Origin: Nanobdellota archaeon | GTDB lineage: Archaea; Nanobdellota; Nanobdellia; Pacearchaeales; GW2011-AR1 | Assembly (NCBI GenBank): GCA_038046005.1 | Contig: JBBSXB010000005.1 | Span: 1 to 64,000 of the forward strand | Length of the DNA stretch: 64,000 nt | Direction of reading: 5' to 3' | Part shown: piece after piece, positions 43,849-59,137 of the stretch | Layout of the letters: each line of letters starts with the position of its first letter | Numbering within the stretch: position 1 is the stretch's first letter | Translations under genes and position numbers: made by a program | Notes under the pieces: model-generated | Seen by the model: the letters and a program-made list of their open reading frames with translations, nothing else | Database searches by the model: none | What the model was told of the DNA's origin: nothing

Positions 43849-44208
43849 ATGAAAGTATACGTAGGGAATTTGTCTTTTGCTATCGACAACAACAAGCTTA
43901 ACGAACTTTTCTCTGAATTCGGAGGAATCGAAGAAGCTATTGTCATTGTTGACAAGTTTTCAGGCAGATCAAAGGGATTTGGGTTCGTGACTTTTAAGGA
44001 TGACGATTCAGCTAAGAAAGCCATTTCAGAAATGAATGACAAGGAAGTTGAAGGTAGAAAACTTAAGGTTAATGAAGCAAAACCAATGGATCCTGACAGA
44101 CCAAGACCCCCTAGAAGAGACTTTGGCGGCAGAGGCTTCGGTGGCGGTGGCGGTAGCGGTAGTGGTGGCGGCGGCAGAAGATTCGGCGGAAGCAGAGACA
44201 GATTCTAA
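43849..44208 (+). CDS. RRM RNA-binding protein with Gly/Arg-rich tail
   Basis: RNP2 VYVGNL and RNP1 KGFGFVTF. Confidence 0.93.
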   Translation: MKVYVGNLSFAIDNNKLNELFSEFGGIEEAIVIVDKFSGRSKGFGFVTFKDDDSAKKAISEMNDKEVEGRKLKVNEAKPMDPDRPRPPRRDFGGRGFGGGGGSGSGGGGRRFGGSRDRF

Positions 44209-44300
44209 ATATTTGTCTCAATAAATGAATTTTTCTTTTTTTCTTTTTTAAATTTAAGTTGATGTTTTAGTGCAATAATTTTTATAAGGGGTTAATTAGT

Positions 44301-44954
44301 GTGAGAAATATGGTAGGTAAAGTAAGAATAAGCTACGTTCTAAATGAGAACTATTTTGTGGTTCCAGGAGTTTCTTACAAGGGAGAGACTGGAACCTGGA
44401 ATGTTTTTGAAAATCTTACTGGACAAGTGACTCAAGATGAGCTTGTTGAATACTCTGAAAAAGAAAAACAAAAAGGAAATCCTTATTTGATGGATTTGCC
44501 TTTGCATTTTGCTGTTTTTCTTGCTGCCTACAAATTAAGAAATGGTCAAGATGCCAAGAGATTAAGGGCGTTTTTGCAAAATAGCCTTAGAAGACATTTA
44601 CATACTCTAACGAGAATTGCATATAATCCTGATGGAATAGATGAAGCAATGCACAATTATGGAACTTCTGAACAATATTCTTTAAAAGGAACTATCATTG
44701 GTCCTGACCAGTGGATTAAAGATATGGAAGACAAAAAAACTTTGGAAATTCTTTTAAGTACAGAAGATGTTGTACAAATAAATAATGTTTTTAAGTGGAT
44801 TAGCAAGAAAAATGGATATATTTGTAGAGTGAATTTGCCAACTAAAGAAGATGAGGAAGCTGTCAGGCTTTATGCTGGCGACGATAGGTTCTATTTAGAC
44901 TGTGGCAAGTTAGGTGGTGCGTGTCCTGCCATACGTGTTATGAGAGTTGATTGA
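44301..44954 (+). CDS. Hypothetical protein (possible C-type-lectin-fold family)
   Basis: 217-aa ORF; C-terminus AVRLYAGDDRFYLDC...IRV. Confidence 0.55.
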   Translation: MRNMVGKVRISYVLNENYFVVPGVSYKGETGTWNVFENLTGQVTQDELVEYSEKEKQKGNPYLMDLPLHFAVFLAAYKLRNGQDAKRLRAFLQNSLRRHLHTLTRIAYNPDGIDEAMHNYGTSEQYSLKGTIIGPDQWIKDMEDKKTLEILLSTEDVVQINNVFKWISKKNGYICRVNLPTKEDEEAVRLYAGDDRFYLDCGKLGGACPAIRVMRVD

Positions 44955-45004
44955 GGTTTTAAATCAGTAACTTTTAAAAGGGGATTTCTGCATTATATTT
45001 TCAT

Positions 45005-45117
45005 GCTCGCATGGTCTAGCGGTTATGACTCATCCCTGTCGTGACATCTTCTTTATGAAAAAGAAAGGGGAAAATCACAGAACGGATGCGATCCGGGTTC
45101 GACTCCCGGTGCGGGCG
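45005..45117 (+). tRNA. tRNA-Asp(GTC) with a 41-nt intron at 37/38 (45042-45082)
   Basis: Acceptor GCTCGCA/TGCGGGC, anticodon stem CATCC/GGATG, T arm CCGGG-TTCGACT-CCCGG; BHB with CTGT/ACAG helix and 3-nt bulges CGT and AAC; TTTTAAAA box at 44972-44979; CCA not encoded. Confidence 0.93.
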
Positions 45118-45169
45118 TAATACATATTAGACCAATTTGGTGAGACTCTTTTCCTAACGGATATATTGT

Positions 45170-45200
45170 ATCTCGACTGTCCATATAAAATCCCGAGATC
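45170..45200. promoter_or_regulatory. Palindromic P site copy 0, overlapping the integrase TATA box
   Basis: ATCTCGACTGTCCATATAAAATCCCGAGATC, ending 11 nt before the ATG. Confidence 0.65.
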
Positions 45201-45211
45201 AAGGAAAAGAT

Positions 45212-46363
45212 ATGAAAATCGATCCATATAAGCACAAGGAAAGATACCTTAATTGGAAAGAATCAGTAAAACAGGGAATTCCGAGCATAAGCAAAGAAAA
45301 CTCGGAAATTATACTGCAATATCTAAAAGATATGGAAATTGGAGTTAATATTTCTTCAGTTAGTGTGAAAGGCTCAAGAGGATATAATAGACTAAACACT
45401 TTAAAGGACAAACTTATATTCTTCTCCAAAAAGTTTAACACAAGCTTTAATTTGGGCTGTATAATGGAGATTAAAGAGGAACAGTTATTTCAATTCTTTT
45501 CAGAGATGGATAAAGGAATCATAAAAAGACAAGATGGAAATAACTTTATGGGAGTGCACACTTATGTTAAGATATTCAAAGCGTTTTGGCATTGGTATCA
45601 GAAAATCGCCAGAAAGCAGGGAATTGAGGTAAAAGATATTACTTTAGATTTAGATACTAAAGCAAATAAGCCAAAATGGGTTTATCTTACAGAAAAACAA
45701 GTTAAACAGCTTTATGATAGGGCAGGAAGTAGATACAAAGTCCTAATAATGTTCTTATTTGACACAGGAATAAGAGCGCCAACAGAGTTGATTAATATTA
45801 GAGTTAGCGATTTATTCAATAATTGCACTGAGTTGCAAATAAGAGATGAAATAAGTAAAACATTTGGAAGAAGAATTAAATTAATGCTTTGCTCAAACAT
45901 TCTTAAAGACTATATTCAAGAAAATAATCTTAAACCAGAAGATCAGTTATTTGCAATAAACCCAACTGTAGTAAACAGATATCTCAAAAATTTAGCAGTG
46001 AAGATTTTTGGCAAAGGCATGAGTGATGCAGGTGAATTATATTCTAGATTATCAATGTATGATTTCAGGCATTGTTCATGTTGTTATTGGCTTCCAAGAT
46101 ATAAATCTGAAAGTGCCTTGAAATATAGATTTGGATGGAAAAAATCAGATAAAATACATTATTATTCAGAATTATTAGGAATGAAGGACAAAATTTCTGA
46201 AGAAGACCTTTTGATTGATATAACTAAAACAGAAATTGAGAAAAGACTGACAAAAGCTGAAAGAGAAGTTGAATTTTTAACTGAAGATAATCAGCACATG
46301 AAAAATCAGATGAAGGAAATTCTAAAATTAATCTCCAATGCTAGAGAAATTGTAGCTAATTAA
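45212..46363 (+). CDS. Tyrosine recombinase/integrase 1
   Basis: DTGIR, KT, YDFRH, FGW, HYY catalytic pattern; C-terminal coiled coil. Confidence 0.88.
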   Translation: MKIDPYKHKERYLNWKESVKQGIPSISKENSEIILQYLKDMEIGVNISSVSVKGSRGYNRLNTLKDKLIFFSKKFNTSFNLGCIMEIKEEQLFQFFSEMDKGIIKRQDGNNFMGVHTYVKIFKAFWHWYQKIARKQGIEVKDITLDLDTKANKPKWVYLTEKQVKQLYDRAGSRYKVLIMFLFDTGIRAPTELINIRVSDLFNNCTELQIRDEISKTFGRRIKLMLCSNILKDYIQENNLKPEDQLFAINPTVVNRYLKNLAVKIFGKGMSDAGELYSRLSMYDFRHCSCCYWLPRYKSESALKYRFGWKKSDKIHYYSELLGMKDKISEEDLLIDITKTEIEKRLTKAEREVEFLTEDNQHMKNQMKEILKLISNAREIVAN

Positions 46364-46367
46364 AAAC

Positions 46368-46775
46368 AGCCACTCGGCATAATAGGACTCTTTTTGGTTG
46401 GTGGCTCTTTTTGAAGTGATTATTATACAAGAAACATTCAAATTAATGGTGACTCTCTAGACCTTAGATTTTTGAAAACCTATTTTTATTAAATCCGACG
46501 ACAAAATATGAAGAGTCACTCGGCATAATAGAACTCTTTCTTGGCAGTGACTCTTTTTTGAGATAATTCCTTTATGATAAACACTCAAACTAATTGTGGC
46601 TTTTAACTCCTAAAAAAAGGCCAAAGTGCGCACCCCCAATTTTGAGTGCTACAAAATAGATTCTCGTCGGCAAAATTACATAAAAATCATCAAGAGTCAG
46701 TCGACTTAATATGTATGAATGGGGGTGGTGACTCGCTTAAAAAACGCCACCCCCTATAATGGAACTCTTTCTTTA
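46368..46775. repeat. Non-coding region with degenerate direct repeats and hairpins
   Basis: CACTCGGCATAATAG.ACTCTTT at 46371 and 46517, partial copy near 46746; stems AGCCAC/GTGGCT, GAGTCAC/GTGACTC and GGGGGTGGTG/CGCCACCCCC. Confidence 0.75.
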
Positions 46776-46806
46776 CATGAGTTGATTTTTTTATTATAAG
46801 ATCTTC

Positions 46807-49416
46807 TTACTTAATTCCAAACAAATTCTTAACAAAACTAGTAATTACAGAACTAATTGTCTTTTTTTGAGTTGTCGTAGTTGTTTGTACTGAAGTTTTA
46901 GTAGTTGTTGTAATAGCTGCTTTTGGTTGAGTTGTAGTAGTCTTAGGAGTAGTGGTTGTAGTGATTGTTTTTGGAGGTGTTGTGGTAGTTGATGTTCCAA
47001 CTTTCATCGTTACTTTTGTGTTCTTGTAGCTTGCTCCTTCTTCAAGTGTAAATTTAAGTGCAGAAGTATCAAAGCCATTTGTTCCTGGCCCTACTCTTAA
47101 ATTTACTATTGGACCTTTTCCAGTCGGAATAACTGCAGATCCGTCTAACTTATATATTCCAATTATATCTTTATTGAAAGTCACACTGAGTAAGCTTGTT
47201 CTTGGTGTTGAAGTAACTCCCAATACTTTCATCTTAGTTGTATCATATGAAATTTTGAGTCTTACTCCTGAAAGATCATCAGTATTGTCAAGATTTATTG
47301 GAACTAACTTTTCAGTATTTGTTCCTGTTGCAGTCCCGAATGAAACTGTTGAAGTTGAATATCCTGAATAAGTTCTATTATTGCAACTTAGAGGGGTGAA
47401 TGAAATGTAAAGATAATCTATCATCCTCGACAAGTCAGAAATATCAATACCTCCATCAGGTGATCCATCAACATTTCCAACAGACATTGGTGCCTTAAAT
47501 GGTGTAAATGAAATAAACATGTAATCTATCATTGCACTAAGGTCAGCGATGTCTACATTGCCACTCATGTCAAGATTGCCACATATTGTATTTGTTTTGG
47601 TTTTACAAGCACCATCCTGACAAAAAAATCCAAGAGGTTTAATAGTAGAGCAATCGGAAACTCTTGTTCCAACAGATCCATTGTTATTACAGACATACTC
47701 ATAAACCCAACCCTCATATGTTCCATCTTACACACAATAATCAGTATATGAAACACCCTGATAAGTTACAATTCCCTTCATATTATAGTTATAACCTCCA
47801 TCACTGTCAGTGCAAGTTGGTTGTTTCGTGACTTCAATCAAAGCTCCTGAATCATTCATGTCAAGAACAGATATTGACATGTTGTTGAAACTGTCAAAGT
47901 ATGTTTCGTTTTTGAATATGAGCGGCCAAGGAGATTGAAAATGCTCCGAAAAACTAGAATGTGTATTAATAAGAAATGTCCCAATATTTTCAAAATTGTT
48001 AATCTCATTCTGCCCTAATCTTATTAATAATCCATGTTTAAATCTCTCTTCAGTGGGGGGTCGGTCCAGTAAATTTTTATTACTATAATTATTATAACCC
48101 CTATATTCAACATAATAATTTGACAAAAGGTTTAAGTTGTAGTCACCGCTATGAACTGGAGTTAGATTCATAATAGAGATATTATAATTTATGGGTATTT
48201 TAATTCCATGGATTTCTGAGGGATTTATTAATTTTTTTTCTAAAGGAGTGATAAAAAATATTCCTTCCTCAACTTCTGCTATATTATTATCATTCCAACC
48301 CAAAATCTTTTTGCTAAAAACACCATAATCACCATAAAAACTAGAAAATCCCATAACATCAAAAAAATCCCCATATTCATAATAAGTATGATATTTTTCA
48401 ATCACCAAAATTTCCTTTGCGTGCATAAGACCAAAATTATGTCCAAATTCGTGAACGAGAGTATTAAAACTATTGGGATATTCATTATCATAATAGTGTT
48501 GCCAGTAGTGATTAATCCATAAAGAATAGATATTAACTATTCCCTCATTTGTTAAATAAAAATTTTTTCCAATAGCGGCCATTCCAGAATACCATTTAAA
48601 GCAATCATTAGTTGATGAGTAAACAATAATTCCATCGTATTTACTAAAGTTTGTATCTTGGTCTGATTTATTTATTGCGATATTAACGTAGTCTGAATAA
48701 TCACAATTTGAGAAGTTATCATAGATGTAAGAACCTCCAAAATCTACATGTATGTTTGCTTTCCCATAAGAAGCATCCTTTATCCAATTATTTACTAATC
48801 CGAAAGTTATGTTGGTAAAATTTTCTGCATCAAAATTATTTTTATCTGCTTCATTTAATAAATAAACAACAACATATTTCTGCTCACCCAATGTTTTTGG
48901 CCAAGGTTCAACATTCGCGGAAGCAACAGAATAACTTGTTCCTCTTAAGTTTGAGTTTGTATCAGAAAAACTTATTTTATTATCTTTTAAATAACCAGTT
49001 ACTTTTATTTTGGATTTTACAGGTAAGTGTTTATCTGTACTTAGCTCGTATCTTTTTCCATTATCATTTAGATAATAAACTTCTTTGCTTAATTGAGGTT
49101 CCTTAAAATTATCAATAATCATTAATTCAACAACTCCTTCTTTTGTTACTAACTCTCCTAAAGAATTCTGCGTCTGTGGATTAACCCTTGTCGTTGTAGT
49201 TGGTGTCGTCGGAACAGTCGCTTTGGCCGTAGCCTGTGTCGAAGGACTAGGTGTTTGGAAATTAGAAGTTTTTGCTCCAATTATATCATCGGCAAACTTC
49301 TTCACAATATTTCCAGTAGAATTATAATTGAAACCCAAAAGAACCAACTCCAACACAATAATTAATGATAAAACTAGAATTAATGTTTTGTTAAACTTCA
49401 AACCTCTTTTCTTCAT
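46807..49416 (-). pseudogene. Surface metzincin peptidase-Cys module-dockerin-cohesin protein split by one in-frame TAA
   Basis: HEFGHNFGLMH + DVMG Met-turn; the frame continues past the TAA at 47728-47730 (DGTYEGWVYEYVC...CQDGAC...CGNLDMSGNVD) into the 46807-47568 ORF. Confidence 0.8.
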
Positions 49417-49488
49417 TTAATCATAAAGCAAAAGTAGTTTAAAATAATTTGGGTTGGTAGAAAGTTTATTACCCAATCCATAAATTTC

Positions 49489-49519
49489 ATCTCGACAAGA
49501 TTTATAAAGTCGAGAGATC
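49489..49519. repeat. P site copy 1
   Basis: ATCTCGACAAGATTTATAAAGTCGAGAGATC. Confidence 0.8.
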
Positions 49520-49676
49520 AACACAAATTGTAAAAAATCAAGGGCAAAAAAGAGTCCCATGATTTTGGTCCAATGTATCTCCGATTCGGTGCGGGCGTAG
49601 ACTCCTTTTGGAATAATTAAGTGATGTACTTTTTCTAAATGCAAAAATCTATATATTTCAAGGGATAGACTTTTGT

Positions 49677-50378
49677 ATGGAAAATACTATCTGGGTAAAT
49701 CTTAAGAGAGAGCTTAAAGAAGATTTTAAATTAAGAGAGACTAAACTTCTTTGTTTTGCGACTTTCTTGGTAGTGATTCCTTGGATTCTTTCTAGCTTGT
49801 TATTTTTTGTTTCAGAAAAGGGAATATACTGGGTCAGAATTATTACTTTGGCCATATTTATAATCACTGACATCTTTTACGTTTTAAGAAAAAAGAGAAG
49901 AGATAATTTTTTTACTTCTTGGGGAGACTGGTTGACTATTCTTATTTTAGTAGCAATGTTAGTATTATACCTTGTACTAAGCTTTAAGTCTCTGGAATTT
50001 AAAATATTATCTTTATTGGCTTTTGTCTTTGTTGTGCTTGCAGTATTAGTCATAAATGGCTTTGTCCTTTTAGTAAAAAGCGAAAGATCGTTTTGGATAA
50101 TTCTTCCGTATATTGCCCTCGTTAGTGCAACAATAGTTTTTTTCGGATTTACATTTACTTTTAGCCAAATTAATTATTCTAATGGGACTTTAGTCAAAAA
50201 TGCATGGGATTATATTTACTTTAGCTCGTCTACTTTTTATGCTTCTACATATGGAGACATAATCCCAACTGGAGCGTTGAGTAAATTTTTAACCCAGATA
50301 GAAATATTTTTTAGTTTTATTATACATATTTTCTTAGTTGGTTATATCCTTTCAAAACCTAGGAAAAGTGAAAAATAA
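49677..50378 (+). CDS. Membrane protein with ion-channel pore domain (Ion_trans_2-like)
   Basis: Multiple TM segments; DYIYFSSSTFYASTYGDIIP pore-loop motif. Confidence 0.75.
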   Translation: MENTIWVNLKRELKEDFKLRETKLLCFATFLVVIPWILSSLLFFVSEKGIYWVRIITLAIFIITDIFYVLRKKRRDNFFTSWGDWLTILILVAMLVLYLVLSFKSLEFKILSLLAFVFVVLAVLVINGFVLLVKSERSFWIILPYIALVSATIVFFGFTFTFSQINYSNGTLVKNAWDYIYFSSSTFYASTYGDIIPTGALSKFLTQIEIFFSFIIHIFLVGYILSKPRKSEK

Positions 50379-50379
50379 A

Positions 50380-50607
50380 ATGAAGAAAATACTACTCTCC
50401 ATTGAAAACGCATTGGCATTCCTTTTATCAGGTCTACTTTTACAAGTTAATATTTATTTGGGAATATTGTTTTTAATCGCTGGTTTTTTAGGAACATATT
50501 ATTTAACTAAAAGTACTCCAGAAATAATATCTGGACCAGAAGGATCTTCTCCTCCAGACCCTAAAAGAGTTCCAGAAGGAAGCATCTTTGTACAGTATAA
50601 GAAATAG
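50380..50607 (+). CDS. Small two-TM hypothetical protein
   Basis: Hydrophobic N-terminal half; directly follows the channel gene. Confidence 0.55.
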   Translation: MKKILLSIENALAFLLSGLLLQVNIYLGILFLIAGFLGTYYLTKSTPEIISGPEGSSPPDPKRVPEGSIFVQYKK

Positions 50608-50632
50608 GTTACACAATCGTGATGCATAATCC

Positions 50633-50658
50633 TTAAAAAGTCCAGAGATCGCACACAA
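50633..50658. repeat. P site copy 2 (right half only)
   Basis: TTAAAAAGTCCAGAGATCGCACACAA, identical to the right half of copy 4. Confidence 0.75.
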
Positions 50659-50668
50659 CCACAACAAA

Positions 50669-51610
50669 TTATTTTTCTTTCAAATCTTTTTCTAATTGGC
50701 GGTATTCTTTTATGTAGAGATCAATTGTTGGCTTGATATTATGGTTTTTTTCATATTCCTGCAGAGATTGATAATACTCTACATTATTTTTGAGATTTAT
50801 ATTTAATGGCGGAAGATTATGTTTGATTAAAATGTTATTTAAGAGTATCCTTCCAACCCTTCCATTTCCATCAGCAAATGGGTGGATGTTTTCAAATTGA
50901 TTATGCACCACAGCGGCCAATATGAATGCGGGATATTTTGTTTTATTTTTTTCATACCATCTTATTAACTCGCTTAACAGATAGTTTATTCTTGCTTGTG
51001 GAGCTCCTTCATGGACTACTCTTCCAGATTGATCCGTAACAACAACTTCTTCGCCCTTTTTTCTAAGCTGTCCAGCAAAGTGTTTTGAATTCTTGAAGAC
51101 AATTTTATGAATATCTTTTATTAATTCTATTGAGATATGCTCTTTGGTCTTTCTGATAAATCTAATAGCTTCGTCAACTCCATATGCTTCTGCAATATCT
51201 TCTTTAGATTTGTCTGGCCATTTGTCATGTTCCAAAATGTTAGACACCTCATTTTGGTTTAATTTACTTCCTTCAATAGCGTTTGTATTATATGAGAACA
51301 ACTTAGAAAACTTTTTCCAATCTCCTTCTGATAAGTGAGAAATTTTTAAGGGTATATCAGACTCAATTCTCTTGATTGAGTTTATTTCTTCCTTGGACAG
51401 TTCAATCTTTAATGGGTCTTGGATTATTTTGTATTTGTGTATCTCCTCCAGAATAAGTTTTTCAGCAATTGAAACTCTTTCTTTTAATTTTCCTTCGCTT
51501 AAGTCAGTTCCGAGATATTTCCTGAATTTATGGACTCTTGGGCCCTCGCGATAAGAATGAGCAAGATAGTACTTTATCTTACTCCCTGCTTTTCTTTTTT
51601 CAATGTTCAT
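50669..51610 (-). CDS. Fic family protein
   Basis: HPFADGNGRVGR; inhibitory motif TNAIEG; start placed at MNIEK. Confidence 0.92.
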   Translation of the reverse strand: MNIEKRKAGSKIKYYLAHSYREGPRVHKFRKYLGTDLSEGKLKERVSIAEKLILEEIHKYKIIQDPLKIELSKEEINSIKRIESDIPLKISHLSEGDWKKFSKLFSYNTNAIEGSKLNQNEVSNILEHDKWPDKSKEDIAEAYGVDEAIRFIRKTKEHISIELIKDIHKIVFKNSKHFAGQLRKKGEEVVVTDQSGRVVHEGAPQARINYLLSELIRWYEKNKTKYPAFILAAVVHNQFENIHPFADGNGRVGRILLNNILIKHNLPPLNINLKNNVEYYQSLQEYEKNHNIKPTIDLYIKEYRQLEKDLKEK

Positions 51611-51705
51611 AAATGTACATAGGTGACTACAATATTTAAACATTTCTATTTAGGTGTCTACAAATAACAAAAAATGTAGTCACCCACTGTTATCCATATA
51701 GCCTC

Positions 51706-51834
51706 ATCTCGACAATATTTAAAAAGTCCGGAGATCGCAACACAATCGTATCGAATAGTTTAGGCCGATAATAATCAAAAGAAAAAGACCATCCACCGAA
51801 TCAACCAAGAGGGTGAGGTCTACGGTGCGGGCGT
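51706..51834. repeat. Right end of unit 2 (P site copy 3 + arm + att core)
   Basis: Highly similar to 54881-55009. Confidence 0.88.
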
Positions 51835-51967
51835 AGACTCCTTTTGGAATAATTAAGTGATGTACTTTTTCTAGATTCGAGTGAGCCGATATATTTAAAA
51901 ATGTAAGATATGATAAATGCTAAAGAGTGTGTTTAGGCGCTCGGATCAAATTCTGAGATAATTTGAA

Positions 51968-52531
51968 ATGGTAGAAGAACAACAAATTTTGACGGAAGAT
52001 AGAACTAATACCTCATCTATTGAAGTCCTAGTAGGATACAATGGTCTTTATAATTTTCAAACATGTGGAGATGACCCAAGAACTCTTAGTGAAGTGCTTT
52101 CTACAACTGGGTGGGGTAAAAGCGACTTTTATCAAGCAGGACAGATGGTTGCTGACAGAATGTATAAACTTAATGTTGTAAATCCTGTTATTAATAATGG
52201 TCAGACTTATGAAATAGTATATGACATTCCAGAAGCGGAAGCTGATGCTTTAATCAGAATGCGTGCAGATGACCCTTTCTTTAGTGGAGAGAGACCAGCA
52301 CATCACTTCGAAAAAGTAAATTGTAGAGCACTATTACCTGAGCAATTAGAAGTGTTTAGAAATGGACTTGAATATCAACTTCAGGTTTTGCAAGGTAAGG
52401 TTTCAGAAGCACCTAAAAAAGAAAATCAGAGAGATTCCCTCACCCTCTATCTTAAAACTGCGAACTATGGGAGACAAGAGATAGCCAGGATAAGAAAAAG
52501 TTTTGGAAGGGCAGACAATTCCTGTCCATAA
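51968..52531 (+). CDS. Hypothetical protein
   Basis: 187-aa ORF; no motif recognised. Confidence 0.6.
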   Translation: MVEEQQILTEDRTNTSSIEVLVGYNGLYNFQTCGDDPRTLSEVLSTTGWGKSDFYQAGQMVADRMYKLNVVNPVINNGQTYEIVYDIPEAEADALIRMRADDPFFSGERPAHHFEKVNCRALLPEQLEVFRNGLEYQLQVLQGKVSEAPKKENQRDSLTLYLKTANYGRQEIARIRKSFGRADNSCP

Positions 52532-52620
52532 CCAAGAAATAATTCTAACTAATTTATTGTATTTTATCTTATATACAGATAGATTTATATCCATGTTCTA
52601 CTTAAAGTAATTAAGCTAAA

Positions 52621-52776
52621 ATGGAAGAAATGCCTGTTATCTGTATCAAGTGTGATAAGATGTTTAATTTTCTGGAAGAACTGAGAGGTAATGCTGACAT
52701 GAATAAAGCCGTTGGAGATATCCTATTTGAAAAATATGGCTCAACAGATATAATCTGTAAAGAGTGTAGAAATTAA
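52621..52776 (+). CDS. Small Zn-binding protein (51 aa, not in ORF track)
   Basis: MEEMPVICIKC...ICKECRN with two CxxC; TATA-like box upstream. Confidence 0.6.
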   Translation: MEEMPVICIKCDKMFNFLEELRGNADMNKAVGDILFEKYGSTDIICKECRN

Positions 52777-52777
52777 T

Positions 52778-53560
52778 TTATTTTTTAGTCATAACATATA
52801 TTTTCTTTACAATATTAAACTGAATATCCTCTCCTGAATCTTTATATTTCATTTCTTTCTTTAACTTCTCTGGAAAGACTTTTCTAATGAAATCATTGAG
52901 CTTATTTAATCTTTTAATATCTCCCTTCAATTCTTGATGCAGTCTCTTATTAGAAGAAAATCTATATGTTATCTTGCGATATTCCTTTATATGAGAAAAA
53001 CCGCCTTTTTTCATGGCATCAATAAATTCATCTTCCCTAAAGAAATATCTTTCTCTTGTTAATATATTGAAGCCAGCTAATTCATCTTTCTTTCTTAACA
53101 CATCTTGAAACAATTTCTGATTCTTTTTAGATAACATTATATCCCAAACAATAAACTTCCCATTTTTCTTTAAAACTCTATTTACTTCTTTCGCTACTTC
53201 ATATTGAATCTTTTTAGAAACTTCATGAATTCCCATCTTTATAACAATCTTATCAAAAAATTCTTGGGTAAACCCCGTTTTCGGAAATTTTGTCGATATA
53301 AATCTATTTTTTGGAATCTCTGTAATATTTTTTATGGCTCTTTTTAATTGAACCTCACTTTCGTCTTCAAAATATAAATTTGCTTTCTTCTCTTTTGCAA
53401 GAATCGTTTTTCCAACAGCACCATATCCACAAAAAGCGTCTAGAATATTTTCGTTAGGTTTAGGGTTTACGGCTTTAACAAGAGCTTTAAAATCACTTGG
53501 ATTTATACTATGAATATATTCATAGGAAACAATTCTAACATCAAAACCTTCTTTTTTCAT
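52778..53560 (-). CDS. Class I SAM-dependent methyltransferase
   Basis: ILDAFCGYG, FDKI, RVLKKNG. Confidence 0.82.
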   Translation of the reverse strand: MKKEGFDVRIVSYEYIHSINPSDFKALVKAVNPKPNENILDAFCGYGAVGKTILAKEKKANLYFEDESEVQLKRAIKNITEIPKNRFISTKFPKTGFTQEFFDKIVIKMGIHEVSKKIQYEVAKEVNRVLKKNGKFIVWDIMLSKKNQKLFQDVLRKKDELAGFNILTRERYFFREDEFIDAMKKGGFSHIKEYRKITYRFSSNKRLHQELKGDIKRLNKLNDFIRKVFPEKLKKEMKYKDSGEDIQFNIVKKIYVMTKK

Positions 53561-53641
53561 GAATATTTATTATTTTATAGATTTATATATTATTTTATTT
53601 CGTAAAAACAAAAAATAACTCTCTCTTAATCCATGCATTCC

Positions 53642-53672
53642 ATCTCGACAAGATTTAAAAAGTCCAGAGATC
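53642..53672. repeat. P site copy 4
   Basis: ATCTCGACAAGATTTAAAAAGTCCAGAGATC followed by GCACACAATCGTA. Confidence 0.82.
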
Positions 53673-53701
53673 GCACACAATCGTAAGTAAATCAATTAAG
53701 G

Positions 53702-54658
53702 TTAGTATTTCTGTAAAACCTTTAAGATATAATCATAAGATTTATCTGCCTGCTCCAGCATGAATTGATAATAACCTTTTGATCTTCTATTAATTGCCTG
53801 CTCAAGAGTATTAAAGTAAGCTAGTTTATTTTCCTTATACACCACCATAGGGTAATACCCTGCGCTCATTAAAATTTTGTTCATAATTAATCTGCCTGTT
53901 CTTCCATTGCCATCTCTGAATGGATGTATATTTTCATACATTTTATGAAATTCAAATGCTAAAACTAGGGGGTGAATTTTGTTTTTGTTAGTTCTATGCC
54001 AATTTAGTAAATCATTTAGTTCTTCTTCCACTTTTTCAGGGGGTGTTGTCTGCGAGTTTCCAACAATAACCTCTTCTTTTTTAAAACCCTTAGGATAGGG
54101 AATGTTTCCGATCATCAACAAATCTTTAGTAAGTATATGATATAGCCTTTTTATTGATATTAAATTAAATTTAAATGATTTTTGTAGATATTCAAATGCT
54201 AAAATTGAATTTTTTACTTCTTTTACTTCATTCCTGTCTTTATATTTTGTGTCTCCAGTATCGATAATTTCCCTCACTCTTTCAGGAGGTATTTTTGATC
54301 CTTCGATGTTATTAGAATTAAAAATAAACTCTTCAGCAAATTCTGTATCTACGTTTTTCTCGCATTTTTTTCCCTCTAGGAGATTGCTGATTTTTATAGA
54401 TTTTAATTCTATTTTTTCAGGGAGATTTTCATTATAAGACAACTCTTTCTTAATCTGATGTAGAAATTTGGATTTGAACTTTAGCTCTTCTTCAGATAAG
54501 GTCTCTAAATTATCCAGTATGTATTTTTCTTTGCTAAATGTCAAAGAATCTGTGCCTATGTATTTCTTAAGAACTAACAATTGATTCATAAATGAGATTT
54601 TTTTGACAAAATAAATGCTAGTTTTTCCATTGATATTCTTCTTTTCTATATAACTCAT
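53702..54658 (-). CDS. Fic family protein
   Basis: HPFRDGNGRTGR; inhibitory motif SNNIEG. Confidence 0.92.
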   Translation of the reverse strand: MSYIEKKNINGKTSIYFVKKISFMNQLLVLKKYIGTDSLTFSKEKYILDNLETLSEEELKFKSKFLHQIKKELSYNENLPEKIELKSIKISNLLEGKKCEKNVDTEFAEEFIFNSNNIEGSKIPPERVREIIDTGDTKYKDRNEVKEVKNSILAFEYLQKSFKFNLISIKRLYHILTKDLLMIGNIPYPKGFKKEEVIVGNSQTTPPEKVEEELNDLLNWHRTNKNKIHPLVLAFEFHKMYENIHPFRDGNGRTGRLIMNKILMSAGYYPMVVYKENKLAYFNTLEQAINRRSKGYYQFMLEQADKSYDYILKVLQKY

Positions 54659-54880
54659 AACTTATGCACTCCTTTATCCTTTATAAACCTTACCATTTGG
54701 GCAGTATAAAAATATTATATTTCCCCTATATAATTAAAAATAGTACTATTTTGGCAGTAAAAAAGTTAAATTTATGCACCATTTTGGCAGTATAATTTTG
54801 CTATCTTCCCCTATGGTTTTATAAATGTTTATATGAGTTTTTTTAGAACCATAGATGCTTTTATATAAAATTATTCCTTC

Positions 54881-55009
54881 CTCTCGACAATATTTAAAAA
54901 TCCCAGAGATCGTACACAACTATATCGGACGGTTTTAGGCCGATAATAATCAAAAGAAAAAGACCATCCACCGAATCAACCAAGATGGTAAGGTCTACGG
55001 TGCGGGCGT
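54881..55009. repeat. Right end of unit 3 (P site copy 5 + arm + att core)
   Basis: Highly similar to 51706-51834. Confidence 0.88.
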
Positions 55010-55101
55010 TCACGTATTTTGTGAGCCTGATGTGATGGACTTTTTCTTAACGGATGATTTTCATCCGATCCCTATATAAAAAACAAGGGCTTAGAAAAAA
55101 T

Positions 55102-56268
55102 ATGAAAATAGATCCATACAAACACAAAGAAAGATACCTTAAATGGAGGGAATCTGTAAAAGAGGGCATTTCAAGGATAAATTCTTACAATTCTGATTTA
55201 ATTTTAAAATACCTTGATGATATGGAAAACGGGATGAATGTTGCTAAAGGAAATGTTAAGGGTTCTAGGAGCTATATTCGACTTAATACGCTAAGAGAGA
55301 AAATGAGGTTTTTCTCTTTAAGATTCAAGGAAAGGTATAATCTTGATAAAATAACTGATGTTTCTGAAGAACAGTTATGCGTCTTTTTTTCTGAAATGAA
55401 AAGAGGGGTTATTAAAAGAAAAGACGGGAAGTCATATATTGCTATAGCGTATTCTGTCAAGTGCTTCAAGGCTTTTTGGCATTGGTATCAGAAAATAAGC
55501 AAAAAGAGTGGAAAGGAAATTTTAGATATTACTTCAGATCTTGATACGAGAGAGGACAAGCCTAAATGGGTTTATTTGACTGAAGAGCAGGTTAAGAAAT
55601 TATGTGAAAATGCAAAGTTCAATTATCGGGTTTTAATCACTTTTCTTTTTGATACTGGAATCAGGGCTCCAACAGAGCTGATGAACATAAAAGTTTCTGA
55701 TCTTTACAATGACTGCAAAGAGCTAAACATTAGAGAGGAAATCAGCAAAACATTTGGCAGAAGAATAAAACTTATGCTTTGTTCAAATTTCCTTAAAAGT
55801 TATATTGAACAAAACGAATTAAAAAAAGAAGATTATCTTTTTCAGATAAAGCCTTATGTTGTTAATCAATATCTTAAGAGATTATCAAAAAATCTCTTTG
55901 GAGATAAGGAAAGCCCAGCAGGGCAGAGATATTCTCAATTAACAATGTATGACTTCAGGCATATCTCTTGTTGCTATTGGCTTCCAAGATACAAATCAGA
56001 GTCTGCGTTAAAATTTAGATTTGGCTGGAAAAAATCTGATAAAATTCATTATTATTCCGAAATGCTTGGAATGAGGGATACAATTTCTGATGAAGATCTT
56101 TTAGTGGACATAACAAAGACAGAAATTGAAAAGAAGCTGTTAAAATCTGAGAATGAAAAGGAAATACTAAATGAACGAGTTCAGCATCTTGAGAAGCAGA
56201 TGAATGAGATTTTGAGATTAACAAATAAGGTGGAAGAATTCAGAGTTATAAGATTAAGCGATGACTAA
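55102..56268 (+). CDS. Tyrosine recombinase/integrase 2 (paralog of integrase 1)
   Basis: Same MKIDPYKHKERY start; DTGIR, YDFRH, FGW, HYY. Confidence 0.88.
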   Translation: MKIDPYKHKERYLKWRESVKEGISRINSYNSDLILKYLDDMENGMNVAKGNVKGSRSYIRLNTLREKMRFFSLRFKERYNLDKITDVSEEQLCVFFSEMKRGVIKRKDGKSYIAIAYSVKCFKAFWHWYQKISKKSGKEILDITSDLDTREDKPKWVYLTEEQVKKLCENAKFNYRVLITFLFDTGIRAPTELMNIKVSDLYNDCKELNIREEISKTFGRRIKLMLCSNFLKSYIEQNELKKEDYLFQIKPYVVNQYLKRLSKNLFGDKESPAGQRYSQLTMYDFRHISCCYWLPRYKSESALKFRFGWKKSDKIHYYSEMLGMRDTISDEDLLVDITKTEIEKKLLKSENEKEILNERVQHLEKQMNEILRLTNKVEEFRVIRLSDD

Positions 56269-56389
56269 CTACTTCTTTTTCTTTTTAGCTTTTTTCTTAG
56301 CCATGATGTACAAAAGAAATTAATGTTTAAAAGAGTTTTGGATTTTAGTAAACCCAAAAGATTTTATATTAACTTTTCCTTTTAAATAA

Positions 56390-59137
56390 ATGAAATTAAG
56401 TGAAGCAGAAACAAGGAAAAAGTTAATTGATCCAGTTTTAGATAGAGTTGGCTGGAAAATTAATGGGGGTTATGTTAAAGAAGAGATTAACCCCGTTAAA
56501 TCTAAATTTCAACTTAAAGAATATATTGGTCGTGAAGCTGGAATAGAAAGAAATGTGGATCGATTTATAGATTATTTACTCTTAGATGAAGATAGAAGCC
56601 CTCTAGCAATAATTGAATCCAAGAAAACATCAGTTGATGTAGAAAAAGGAGAAATTCAGGCAAGAACTTATAGGGATGATGTTGAAAAACAAATTGGAGT
56701 AAAAATACCCATTTTTCTTACAAATGGAAAAACTTGGTATTATGTTGATAATTTAGACAGAAGAAGACAAATATTACTTCCATTTAATCAAAAAGATCTT
56801 CACAGAATTGTTAGTTTGATGAAAAAAAAGAAAGATCCTGCAAATGTAAAGATTAATACAAAAATAGTGGATAGAAAAAGAGGAATAGAAGCTGTGAAGA
56901 TCGTCTTGGAACATTTTTCAAAAGGATATAGAGAGGCATTAATTAATATGGCGACAGGAACAGGAAAAACAAGAGTTGCCATGGCAATAATTGAAGGATT
57001 AATAAAAGCAGAATATGTGCAGAAAATATTATTTGTTGTTGATAGAATTTCTTTAGGAAATCAAGCTAAAGAAGAAGGGTTCAAAAAATTCTTTCCAGAT
57101 AGCCCAATTTGTGAATTAAACGAAGAAGGATATTCAGATACAGCAAGATTTTATGTTTCAACTGTTCAAACACTTATGTCTTCACAAAAACCTAGAGGTA
57201 AGTTTTACGAAAAATTTGGTTCTGGAGCATTTGATTTAATTATTTTTGATGAAGCCCATAGATCTTATTATGATAGAAATAATGACATATTCAAATATTT
57301 TGATGCCTTGAAAATAGGGTTAACTGCAACTCCTTCTTCAGAAGATTCAAAAGACACTTTTGAATTATTTAATTGTGAAAAGGGGAAACCAACTGTCAAG
57401 TATGATTATTGGGACGCAGTAAATGATAAAGTTCTTGTTCCTTATGTTGCTGATATTATCGAAACCAAAGTTTTATCTCTAGGGATAGAAGGGAAAAAAT
57501 TAAGTAAAGAGTTACAACAGGCATTAAAATTACAAGAAGAAGAACCAGAAAAGTTTCAAACTCCCGGCTCTAAATTTGAAAGGCATTTTACAGATGAGAA
57601 AACTAATGAATTAATAATCAGAGAGTTTGTGGATAGATGTTATAAATCAGATGATAATAGACCTTGCAAAAGTATTTTTTTCTGTGCAAGTGTTAAACAT
57701 GCAGAAGCATTAGAAATATTATTTCAAAAATTATATCCTCTTTTAGCAAAAGATGTTAAGGTTATTACCTCAGATAAATCCCGTTACACAGATGAGGTTA
57801 AGAGATTTATAAAAAGAGACAGTCCAAGAATTGCTTTATCTGTAGGAGTATTAGACACAGGAATAGATGTCCCAGAGATAATGAACTTAGTTTTTGTTAA
57901 GCCAGTCATATCTTCAATTAGATTTTGGCAGATGTTGGGGAGAGGAACTAGAAGTATTTCTGCTTGTGAAAATAAACAATGGCTTCCAACAAATAAGGAT
58001 GGACAACATATAAAAGAAGATTTTCTAATCTTGGACTTTAAATTTGGAGATTGGTCAAATGTTCTTCAACATAAGCTAAATGTTTCAAAGCAAAGATCAT
58101 CAGGAACAGACGCAAAAACAAGAATTTTCTTGGAGCAGGTAGATACTTTAGAAAAAAACCTAAATGAGAAAGAAAAGAAAATTGTAGAAAAACAAATAAG
58201 AGACACAATTAAAGAGATTGACATTGATTCTCCTTTAGTCATGGAGAAAAGAGAAATTATTAAGAAAATTGTCTCTTCTAAGTTTGATTTGAAGGAACAT
58301 GTGAAAGAATTGAGAGAAGAAATTGCCCCTCTTTTGATTTATTCTTCATCAGAAAATGCGAAAGTATACGGATTTATTTCTAGATGTATTAAGTTATTTG
58401 ACCACATTAAAACAAATAACAAAGAAAAAATTGCTAAGATAGAAGATTTTGTTGTTAAAAGAGCTGAAGCTATTTGGGACAAAAACTTAGATACAATAAA
58501 AGAAAAAAGAGATGATCTTATAAAAATCCAGAAAGAACCTTTTTGGGAAGAGATTACATTTGAAGATGTTGATTTTTTAGTTAGAGATATTGCTCCTTTA
58601 ATGATTTTTTATGAAGAGGAAAGAAAAAATATGCTGAAGATTAATGCTCCAGACATGGTTATGAAAGTAGATAAAGAAATTATGGAAATAAAAGAAGATA
58701 AAGACTTTAAGAAATTCATTGAAAATAATATTTTAATGAAAAGGATAAAAGATGGAGAAGGAGTTAATTCTAAAGAGCTTTTAGAGATAGAAAGTAAGCT
58801 TAAACAGCTTAATCCTGCCCTTACGATAGATAATATTCAGCAAAGCAAAGATTTTGTGTTATTTTTAAGGGAGCTAATTGAAGTAAAAGGATTGCCTGAC
58901 CCTCAAGAAATGATTAGGTGGGAATTTGATAAGTTTGTTAAAGACAGAAATGAACATTATAACTCAGAACAACTTAAATTCTTAAGACTTTTAGAGCAAG
59001 TTTTTATAAGGGCTAAACATATAGAATTAAAGAATTTCGCAGAACATCCTCTTGCAGATGCTCGTCCACTTGATATTTTCACAAAAGAACAACTCGAATT
59101 AATTGTTCAAAAATGCAACAAATTGAAATGGAAATAA
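56390..59137 (+). CDS. hsdR: Type I restriction enzyme R subunit
   Basis: IDY...IIESK nuclease motif, MATGTGKT, DEAH, TATP, LDTGIDVP, QMLGRGTR. Confidence 0.92.
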   Translation: MKLSEAETRKKLIDPVLDRVGWKINGGYVKEEINPVKSKFQLKEYIGREAGIERNVDRFIDYLLLDEDRSPLAIIESKKTSVDVEKGEIQARTYRDDVEKQIGVKIPIFLTNGKTWYYVDNLDRRRQILLPFNQKDLHRIVSLMKKKKDPANVKINTKIVDRKRGIEAVKIVLEHFSKGYREALINMATGTGKTRVAMAIIEGLIKAEYVQKILFVVDRISLGNQAKEEGFKKFFPDSPICELNEEGYSDTARFYVSTVQTLMSSQKPRGKFYEKFGSGAFDLIIFDEAHRSYYDRNNDIFKYFDALKIGLTATPSSEDSKDTFELFNCEKGKPTVKYDYWDAVNDKVLVPYVADIIETKVLSLGIEGKKLSKELQQALKLQEEEPEKFQTPGSKFERHFTDEKTNELIIREFVDRCYKSDDNRPCKSIFFCASVKHAEALEILFQKLYPLLAKDVKVITSDKSRYTDEVKRFIKRDSPRIALSVGVLDTGIDVPEIMNLVFVKPVISSIRFWQMLGRGTRSISACENKQWLPTNKDGQHIKEDFLILDFKFGDWSNVLQHKLNVSKQRSSGTDAKTRIFLEQVDTLEKNLNEKEKKIVEKQIRDTIKEIDIDSPLVMEKREIIKKIVSSKFDLKEHVKELREEIAPLLIYSSSENAKVYGFISRCIKLFDHIKTNNKEKIAKIEDFVVKRAEAIWDKNLDTIKEKRDDLIKIQKEPFWEEITFEDVDFLVRDIAPLMIFYEEERKNMLKINAPDMVMKVDKEIMEIKEDKDFKKFIENNILMKRIKDGEGVNSKELLEIESKLKQLNPALTIDNIQQSKDFVLFLRELIEVKGLPDPQEMIRWEFDKFVKDRNEHYNSEQLKFLRLLEQVFIRAKHIELKNFAEHPLADARPLDIFTKEQLELIVQKCNKLKWK

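Follow-up and report, generated by a model that had tools for sequence, protein, structure and literature searches.

The 64,000-nt window analyzed here (Nanobdellota archaeon, GenBank assembly GCA_038046005.1, contig JBBSXB010000005.1, positions 1 to 64,000 of the forward strand) carries two fic genes, each lying between two copies of a recurrent, TATA-centered DNA module that we call P. Integrative elements are stacked in tandem here over about 44 kb at a tRNA-Asp gene, as shown by the 3' end of the tRNA, which recurs at 49588, 51824, and 54999 and on contig C11. As to P itself, we lean toward the view that it is a promoter/operator module of the attachment-site (att) arms and that its internal copies are vestiges of fused elements. 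A sequence-only reading of the window had tied P to mobile units as a crossover site. The tie itself stood, as P marks the boundaries of cargo units and is confined to tRNA-linked islands, but the demonstrable crossover sites of the integrases are the repeated tRNA 3' ends, here called cores, and not P.

Tandem elements at the tRNA-Asp gene

The target, the elements E1 to E4, their ends, and the integrase genes are as follows.

45005-45117, + strand: tRNA-Asp(GTC) gene with an intron of ~41 nt, the integration target (Rfam tRNA, 45.3 bits; G110 orthologue)
45108-45119, + strand: core 0, the last 12 nt of the tRNA, GGTGCGGGCGTA (repeat of the tRNA 3' end)
45118-49599: E1, containing int1 and two secreted-protein genes
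45212-46363, + strand: int1, tyrosine integrase with the pNOB8-type R..YxxR..Y motif (Pfam PF00589, 9.6e-09, 35.7 bits against a cutoff of 27.1)
49588-49599, + strand: core 1, the E1/E2 junction (repeat of the tRNA 3' end)
49600-49637, + strand: left arm of E2 (P' arm, type 2), identical to that of E3; E2 extends to 51835, lacks an integrase, and carries a channel-like open reading frame (ORF), a small ORF, and fic1
51737-51835, + strand: D2b leader plus core 2 (51824-51835; repeat family D2)
51836-51873, + strand: left arm of E3 (type 2), matching that of E2; E3 extends to 55009, lacks an integrase, and carries ORF187, ORF51, a methyltransferase gene, and fic2
54912-55009, + strand: D2b leader plus core 3 (54999-55009, GGTGCGGGCGT then T; repeat finder and core search)
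55102-56268, + strand: int2, the integrase of E4, 65% identical to int1; the true ATG is taken as 55102, where homology begins. E4 is ~30 kb long, carries int2 and type I restriction genes, and ends on C11

The tRNA end GGTGCGGGCGTA is repeated at 49588 and 51824 and, with one change, at 54999 and C11:31123, giving five copies in total. The repeated part comprises only the last 11-12 nt of the tRNA, which ruled out a split tRNA gene. ARAGORN, run with introns allowed, called the target tRNA-Ser(aga); we take this as a miscall, since the orthologue in G110 (locus L096), a genome of the same genus, is a tRNA-Asp(gtc) to which the exons of 45005-45117 are 98-100% identical. The ~41-nt intron is present in the genome under study (G000) and absent from G110. 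E2 and E3 have 51-54 nt in common at their left ends, with 98-100% identity (against 51823-51876). Contigs C5 and C11 join inside the island through 55 identical bases at their ends (C5:83677-83731 and C11:32788-32842, reverse strand), and the core on C11 is followed by a third integrase, so that a further element with an integrase of its own lies beyond E4. In G110, 3.3 kb lie between the tRNA and the DNA that is syntenic with G000 from C11:26892 downwards; the ~44-kb island is missing, and the unoccupied target is seen at the level of the island only.

The integrase on C11 also matched PF00589 (4.4e-09), while int2 had no Pfam match at 0.01. In all five integrases aligned, R188, Y283-D-F-R286-H287, and Y317/Y318 were invariant, and R188, Y283-R286, and Y317/318 are probably the catalytic residues. 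The arrangement R..YxxR..Y is given as the pattern of pNOB8-type integrases in the available portion of a review (PMC8371274). Judged by their domain, motif, intact integrase gene next to a tRNA, 3'-end repeats, and island-free relative, the elements would fit tRNA-targeting integrative elements with a type II (pNOB8-type) tyrosine integrase. With the type II elements of the lambda paradigm, as that portion of the review describes them, they share an intact tyrosine integrase gene by a tRNA, direct repeats of the tRNA 3' end, the R..YxxR..Y motif, and the stacking of several elements at one tRNA. They differ from them in a DPANN-type host, an att identity of ~11-12 nt, a promoter-like module in both arms, and small integrase-less derivatives with Fic or MNT-HepT genes. 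The review, in which the terms DPANN and Woesearchaeota do not occur, also states that archaeal elements integrated in tandem exchange modules by recombination.

Among 30 related integrase loci, ARAGORN detected a co-oriented tRNA at most 700 nt upstream of the integrase gene in 14; the integrases on C4 and C8 of G000 are remnants. A search by sequence for a solved relative of int1 in the Protein Data Bank found none at an E value of 0.01. We considered a viral origin and dropped it, since IMG/VR yielded 0 matches for the P pattern and no integrase relative was found there. A ~55-nt repeat whose ends look like hairpins (GCCACTCGG...GGTGGCTC) occurs four times just after int1 (46358-46789), and a related stretch is found at C5:70410-70509.

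Integrase-less elements that are flanked by att sites and lie beside a functional element are familiar from accretion in Streptococcus thermophilus (ICESt1/ICESt3), where they are called cis-mobilizable elements (CIMEs). E2, E3, and a 1.35-kb fic element on C8 resemble CIMEs in being integrase-less, bounded by att cores, and in tandem with integrase-bearing elements; they belong to another domain of life and go with another integrase family. To our knowledge, the mobile elements of DPANN archaea are barely described. The locus provides a clean, testable anatomy for one DPANN element family (tRNA core, inverted repeats, a promoter-like module in each arm, a predicted leaderless integrase mRNA, and toxin-only integrase-less derivatives) and shows ~44 kb of stacked elements at one tRNA in a 0.87-Mb genome. 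As it stands, this is an informative but ordinary kind of element.

The P module and its confinement to tRNA-linked islands

Five copies of P had been reported at 49489, 50633, 51706, 53642, and 54881, in one orientation and always between genes; we name these P1 to P5 and add a sixth, P0. They are listed here with the inverted repeat (IR) of E1 and the cargo genes.

45120-45152, + strand: IR-R, the right arm of a 33-nt inverted repeat at the left end of E1, containing the T-run ACTCTTTTCC (local alignment)
45170-45200, + strand: P0, promoter-like module of int1 (repeat finder, genome scan)
49489-49519, + strand: P1, right (P) arm of E1 (sequence, repeats, pattern)
49548-49578, + strand: IR-L, the inverted partner of IR-R, within the D2a leader and with the conserved motif AGAGTCCCATGATTTTGGTCCA (local alignment)
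49677-50607, + strand: E2 cargo, an ion-channel-like ORF (49677-50378) and an ORF (50338-50607) listed as 89 amino acids from TTG
50621-50660, + strand: P2, diverged P module (position weight matrix [PWM], 12.9 bits)
50669-51643, - strand: fic1, Fic-domain gene with the motif HPFADGNGR (Pfam, 1.5e-20); likely start Met12 at 51610, with its own TATA at -29
51706-51736, + strand: P3, right arm of E2 (sequence, repeats, pattern)
51968-53560: E3 cargo, ORF187 (+), ORF51 (+), and the methyltransferase gene (52778-53560, -)
53642-53672, + strand: P4, internal, between the methyltransferase gene and fic2 (sequence, repeats, pattern)
53702-54658, - strand: fic2, Fic-domain gene (Pfam Fic), 30% identical to fic1, with its own TATA at -28
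54881-54911, + strand: P5, right arm of E3 (sequence, repeats, pattern)

Sequence reading and the repeat finder (families D3 and D6) confirmed the motif at P1, P3, P4, and P5 and only its right half at 50633-50660. A degenerate P pattern with up to three mismatches matched four times in the window, against 0.00 matches expected from 100 shuffles, and all five reported copies exist. P0, which that description did not include, lies within a D3 repeat spanning 45156-45200 and ends 11 nt upstream of the int1 ATG. All copies are on the + strand and between long ORFs, and a 114-nt repeat (family D2) stands immediately to the right of P1, P3, and P5.

The whole module measures ~55-60 nt. It comprises an ATCCAT box, a CGACAA sequence resembling a B recognition element, a TATA box that matches the consensus, an arm that varies and has GAGATC or CCATC at its end, and a start region with CACACA. 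The ATCCAT box noticed ahead of P1, P3, and P4 is indeed there and recurs in relatives. The tail.(C/T)ACACAA, assigned to all five copies, is exact in three, with P1 and P3 deviating; as for the inverted arms, TCTCGAC/GAGATC exist, but the GAC/GTC arm is missing from P5. P2 had been explained as a half-site broken by crossover. It retains the TATA box, the right arm, and the CACACAA tail, and its left part is changed rather than lost, like the variant left arms of C4:8659 and of the copies on C11; a break is not required.

The sequence-only reading had named an ordinary promoter or transcription-factor site as the alternative that a genome-wide PWM scan would reveal. In a scan of the 875-kb genome with a PWM built from 18 sites, all 12 matches at or above the threshold of 12 bits were on C4, C5, C8, and C11, inside four tRNA-linked islands, and this confinement rules out P as a general host promoter. 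The islands lie at tRNA-Asp (C5/C11), by tRNA-Glu(TTC) (C8), and by tRNA-Gly(GCC) (C4), each with repeats of its own tRNA 3' end. P1, P3, P4, and P5 scored 44-46 bits and P0 scored 32.5. The string TCTCGAC-N17-GAGATC, allowing one mismatch, occurred six times in the forward direction across the whole genome, with 0 reverse matches and 0 matches to the reversed control.

Beyond this genome, an order-wide scan found the pattern in 8 of 301 genomes (G000 included), always in integrase/tRNA contexts and with 0 control matches, and a scan of metagenome contigs gave 11 further P loci. Read by eye, the foreign copies stand either a short way upstream of an integrase start codon and directly behind a tRNA (L002, L007, L008, L049, L051, and L052), or ~50-220 nt before a tRNA 3' fragment (L004, L006, L009, L011, L047, L048, L053, and L055). 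At one exception, L054, P faces a complete tRNA on the opposite strand.

At the ends of E1, P1 and P0 sit just outside the 33-nt inverted repeat that flanks the core. IR-R and the reverse complement of 49548-49578 are identical at 26 of 33 positions, a score reached by none of 500 shuffles, and the AGAGTCCCATGATTTTGGTCCA motif is kept in the C8 copy and in the metagenome loci L048, L050, and L055. Reconstituted, the attP of E1 reads P1, IR-L, core, IR-R, P0, int1. The end of P lies 68, 87, and 87 nt to the left of cores 1, 2, and 3, respectively, and similar distances were found by eye at C8, C4, C11, L004, L011, L047, L048, and L055. Two types of sequence occupy the space between P and core: D2a (after P1 and in C8, L048, L050, and L055) and D2b (after P3, P5, and in C11). 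D2a is conserved as sequence only: a search for structured RNA gave a consensus fold of -2.2 kcal/mol with 0 compensatory pairs among six sequences, and the tRNA was the only Rfam match over 44000-57000.

Promoter geometry and the proposed role of P in the att arms

Of the 477 long ORFs of the genome, 78 have the heptamer TTTAWAW starting exactly 29 nt upstream of the ATG and 21 have it 27 nt upstream, over a background of ~2 per position. In view of the peak at -29, most mRNAs of G000 are probably leaderless. The same heptamer is found 26-42 nt upstream of 18 of the 38 tRNA genes, and the center of P (AAGATTTAAAAAG) matches host tRNA promoter boxes, such as that upstream of tRNA-Val on C4. 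The TATA box of P0 starts at -29 from the int1 ATG, the leaderless-promoter distance of this genome, and int2 has a degenerate P-like promoter with TATA at -28.

The 150 nt printed before the start codon were read by eye, unscored, at the 30 related integrase loci. A TATA-like box lies shortly before the start at all 30; a P-like module (xCGACAA, TATA, CCATC or GAGATC, CACACA) ends 11-22 nt before it at 8 and stands 73-99 nt before it at 2. At L002, L007, and L008, P precedes the integrase gene in the same layout. What characterizes an archaeal TATA promoter, a host-consensus TATA box at the leaderless distance, was found for the integrase-proximal copies of P only.

We propose that a family of integrative elements inserts into tRNA 3' ends of this small-genome archaeon and its relatives and that P would form part of their attachment-site arms. 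The P of the left arm would drive the integrase gene, with a leaderless mRNA as the product. The right arm holds a twin of P, at 68-87 nt from the crossover core, which gives a reconstituted attP the order P, inverted repeat, core, inverted repeat, P, int. Int or a regulator would bind the P arms, as in autoregulated tRNA-linked integrases. P2 and P4 would be remains of former element ends or junctions, left after deletions fused neighbors, and each fic would be the last surviving, self-promoted cargo gene beside the right arm of a decayed element. Being the last cargo gene next to that arm, fic would find itself between a vestigial left P and the right-arm P.

According to the available portion of PMC2951348, many tRNA-linked prophages have an autoregulated integrase promoter that is overlapped by attL; in the KplE1/IntS-type modules, Int and the directionality factor exert this autoregulation. 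As in those modules, the integrase gene abuts the tRNA-side att arm, and the arm contains its promoter, no more than ~90 nt from the core. That system is bacterial and uses sigma-70, whereas here the promoter is of the archaeal TATA type, the mRNA would be leaderless, and a second module occupies the other arm; autoregulation is something we infer.

A number of observations speak against a promoter/operator role. P1 to P5 have no start codon at the leaderless distance and therefore, if they fire, would yield noncoding RNA or long leaders; P2 and P4 face the 3' ends of the fic genes and would be read antisense into them. At two of four foreign D2a junctions, by our own reading, P is missing, so that a right-arm P is not obligatory. 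The copies are alike within one genome and different between genomes, and conservation goes beyond a basal promoter, taking in the ATCCAT box and the GAGATC arm. Such homogenized, extended conservation needs a binding factor, recent duplication, or gene conversion. In G374, a genome of another genus, two copies of P are 100% identical over 55 nt, and the fic unit that this genome shares with G000 is flanked in each by that genome's own type of P, which would also fit cassette exchange at P.

It is conceivable that P chiefly serves the recombination complex, as an architectural or arm-type site to which the integrase N-terminal domain, a directionality factor, or TBP/TFB acting as a DNA bender in place of the bacterial integration host factor would bind; the likeness to a promoter would then be secondary, with the int promoter overlapping the arm. 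One P per arm, in direct orientation and just outside the inverted repeats that flank the core, is what such a site would look like, and the P-core distance is rather constant (68-87 nt), with conservation in between at the level of DNA but of no RNA fold. Each element or genome has its own version of the right arm of P, and arm sites that overlap int promoters have a bacterial precedent in the available text of PMC2951348. Against this, some copies (P4 and C4:5501) are far from any core, the two of four foreign D2a-core junctions noted above have no P, and at 20 of the 30 related integrase loci nothing P-like was seen by eye in the 150 nt that precede the start codon. On balance, we regard a mainly architectural role as doubtful. 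The locus offers candidate cis sites for archaeal integrase biochemistry.

A simpler possibility is that only P0-type copies work, as int promoters, and that copies away from an integrase are inert relics of duplicated arms. They lack a start codon at the leaderless distance, several are diverged or halved (P2, C4:8659, the C11 copies, and C8:91625), and the integrases on C4 and C8 are themselves remnants. However, the right-arm copies are as well kept as P0 (44-46 bits for P1, P3, P4, and P5, against 32.5), and their same placement in unrelated contigs argues for selection. We consider this explanation improbable.

The fic units and the question of cassettes

Each fic gene does lie between two copies of P, as the sequence-only reading had claimed for fic1 and fic2. 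Pairwise identity among fic1, fic2, and fic3 (the gene in the 1.35-kb C8 element) is only 28-37%. Relatives of fic1 are present in 139 of 251 genomes of the family. At 29 foreign fic loci (fic 51-93% identical), no PWM match of at least 12 bits was found within 1.5 kb of fic, and with a relaxed pattern the order P-fic-P appeared at a single one, L018 of G374, which rules out P as an inherent flank of fic genes. The fic gene of L018, whose protein is 93% identical to that of fic1, is bracketed by a diverged P variant, in two copies that agree over all 55 nt; a leader and a tRNA-Glu-type core come after the right one. Flanking repeats of 35-41 nt, not P-like, were found at two other loci among the 27 with both flanks long enough for the test.

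Empty alleles, with one P and no fic, had been predicted, and none was found at the level of the cassette; what we have is the sister genome without the whole island. The methyltransferase as a bait had homologues in 0 of 200 family genomes at 1e-40, and the two closest relatives (71% and 66% identical) of the TrmB-like gene left of the P-fic-P unit in G374 lie in other contexts.

These arrangements could be read in another way: P would be a dedicated site-specific recombination site, at which the integrase or XerA recombines P with P and inserts, excises, or swaps fic and toxin-antitoxin cassettes, as at attC in integrons. One- or two-gene units do lie between successive copies of P in several genomes (C4 5501/6668/8659, with MNT-HepT; L006, L009, L011, and L050), and cargo between P modules elsewhere is Fic or MNT-HepT-type pairs. 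The three fic genes occupy the same slot despite their low identity, and P is homogenized within genomes. In G374, the perfect 55-nt duplication surrounds a fic unit 86% identical in nucleotides to that of fic1; this similarity covers 50653-51684 of the window (the fic unit plus operator region) and falls at the edges, in the P modules. The drop outside the fic unit may, however, reflect faster drift of noncoding DNA, and P-fic-P at 1 of 29 foreign fic loci, together with the lack of an empty allele, counts against exchange at P.

The structure of P is a further difficulty. A core site of a tyrosine recombinase, dif/XerA-like, has inverted arms around a spacer of 6-8 bp. In P, TCTCGAC and GAGATC are 17 nt apart with the TATA box between them, and in several variants ending in CCATC the right arm is not complementary to the left. 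The demonstrable repeats of integration are the tRNA cores.

Integrons are reported in Archaea in the available portion of 10.1101/2022.02.06.479319. The present array is like them in its small cargo units, many of them toxin-antitoxin-like, that are separated by a recurrent element of ~55 nt beside a tyrosine recombinase gene. It is unlike them in having units with promoters of their own, genes on both strands, a TATA-centered element, and tRNA cores as the integration repeats, and the attC motifs R'' (RYYYAAC) and R' (GTTRRRY) were both absent from all six modules plus flanks. Nor are the units promoterless and in one orientation: fic1, fic2, and the methyltransferase gene are on the opposite strand, and each has a TATA box of its own. 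Such a box stands at -28 to -30 for int2, fic1 (from Met12), fic2, and the methyltransferase gene, so that the cassettes do not need P.

The duplicated segment, moreover, varies from locus to locus, being P alone, P plus D2a, or D2a alone. The 1.35-kb unit on C8 has the order core, left arm, left half of P, fic3, P, D2a, core. At L050 and C4:6668, P is followed by a D2 or leader remnant without a core. On C15 of G374, we read tRNA-Glu, core, short arm, fic, P, D2a without a core, MNT-HepT, D2a, and core, with no left P, and on C11 of G375, MNT-HepT runs directly into D2a and a core, with no P. A duplicated piece this variable is better explained by erosion and fusion of tandem att junctions than by a single crossover point inside P. 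The HepT ORFs of two further genomes (L133 1172-1534; L134 2054-2395) terminate within the D2a motif that is conserved in att arms.

Taken with the structure of the module, the variable extent of the duplications makes a dedicated recombination site improbable in our estimation. An intermediate form, in which P is both a promoter and a true recombination site and the integrase or XerA swaps self-promoted Fic and MNT-HepT units at P or at the P-D2 arm, would be an archaeal, integron-like system set in the arms of a tRNA attachment site, with a TATA-centered site replacing attC; we rate it as similarly improbable. If the cassette explanation were true, the locus would represent a second, unrelated route to cassette arrays. 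We continue to favor P as a promoter/operator module of the att arms.

Several minor features of these islands are recorded here. On C4 of G000 (L058 1732-3297), a 521-residue protein has Pfam matches to regions 2 and 4 of bacterial sigma-70 (4.3e-07 and 8.7e-08), which is odd for an archaeon. Between fic2 and P5 (54692-54811), there are three copies of a 34-nt repeat (ACCATTTGGGCAGTATAA...), possible fic2 operators. Over their N-terminal ~40 residues, the fic1 and fic3 proteins are similar to the same part of MNT-type nucleotidyltransferases (xKKYYYxxxSxRxGKKVxKxRKYLG; window 51500-51643, L001 6688-6800, and L058 5674-5790), and this common N terminus of the fic1, fic3, and MNT-type proteins may be a shared autoregulatory DNA-binding domain. 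GTCTAC/GTAGAC palindromes lie upstream of fic1, fic3, and MNT-type genes and are conserved at many fic loci.

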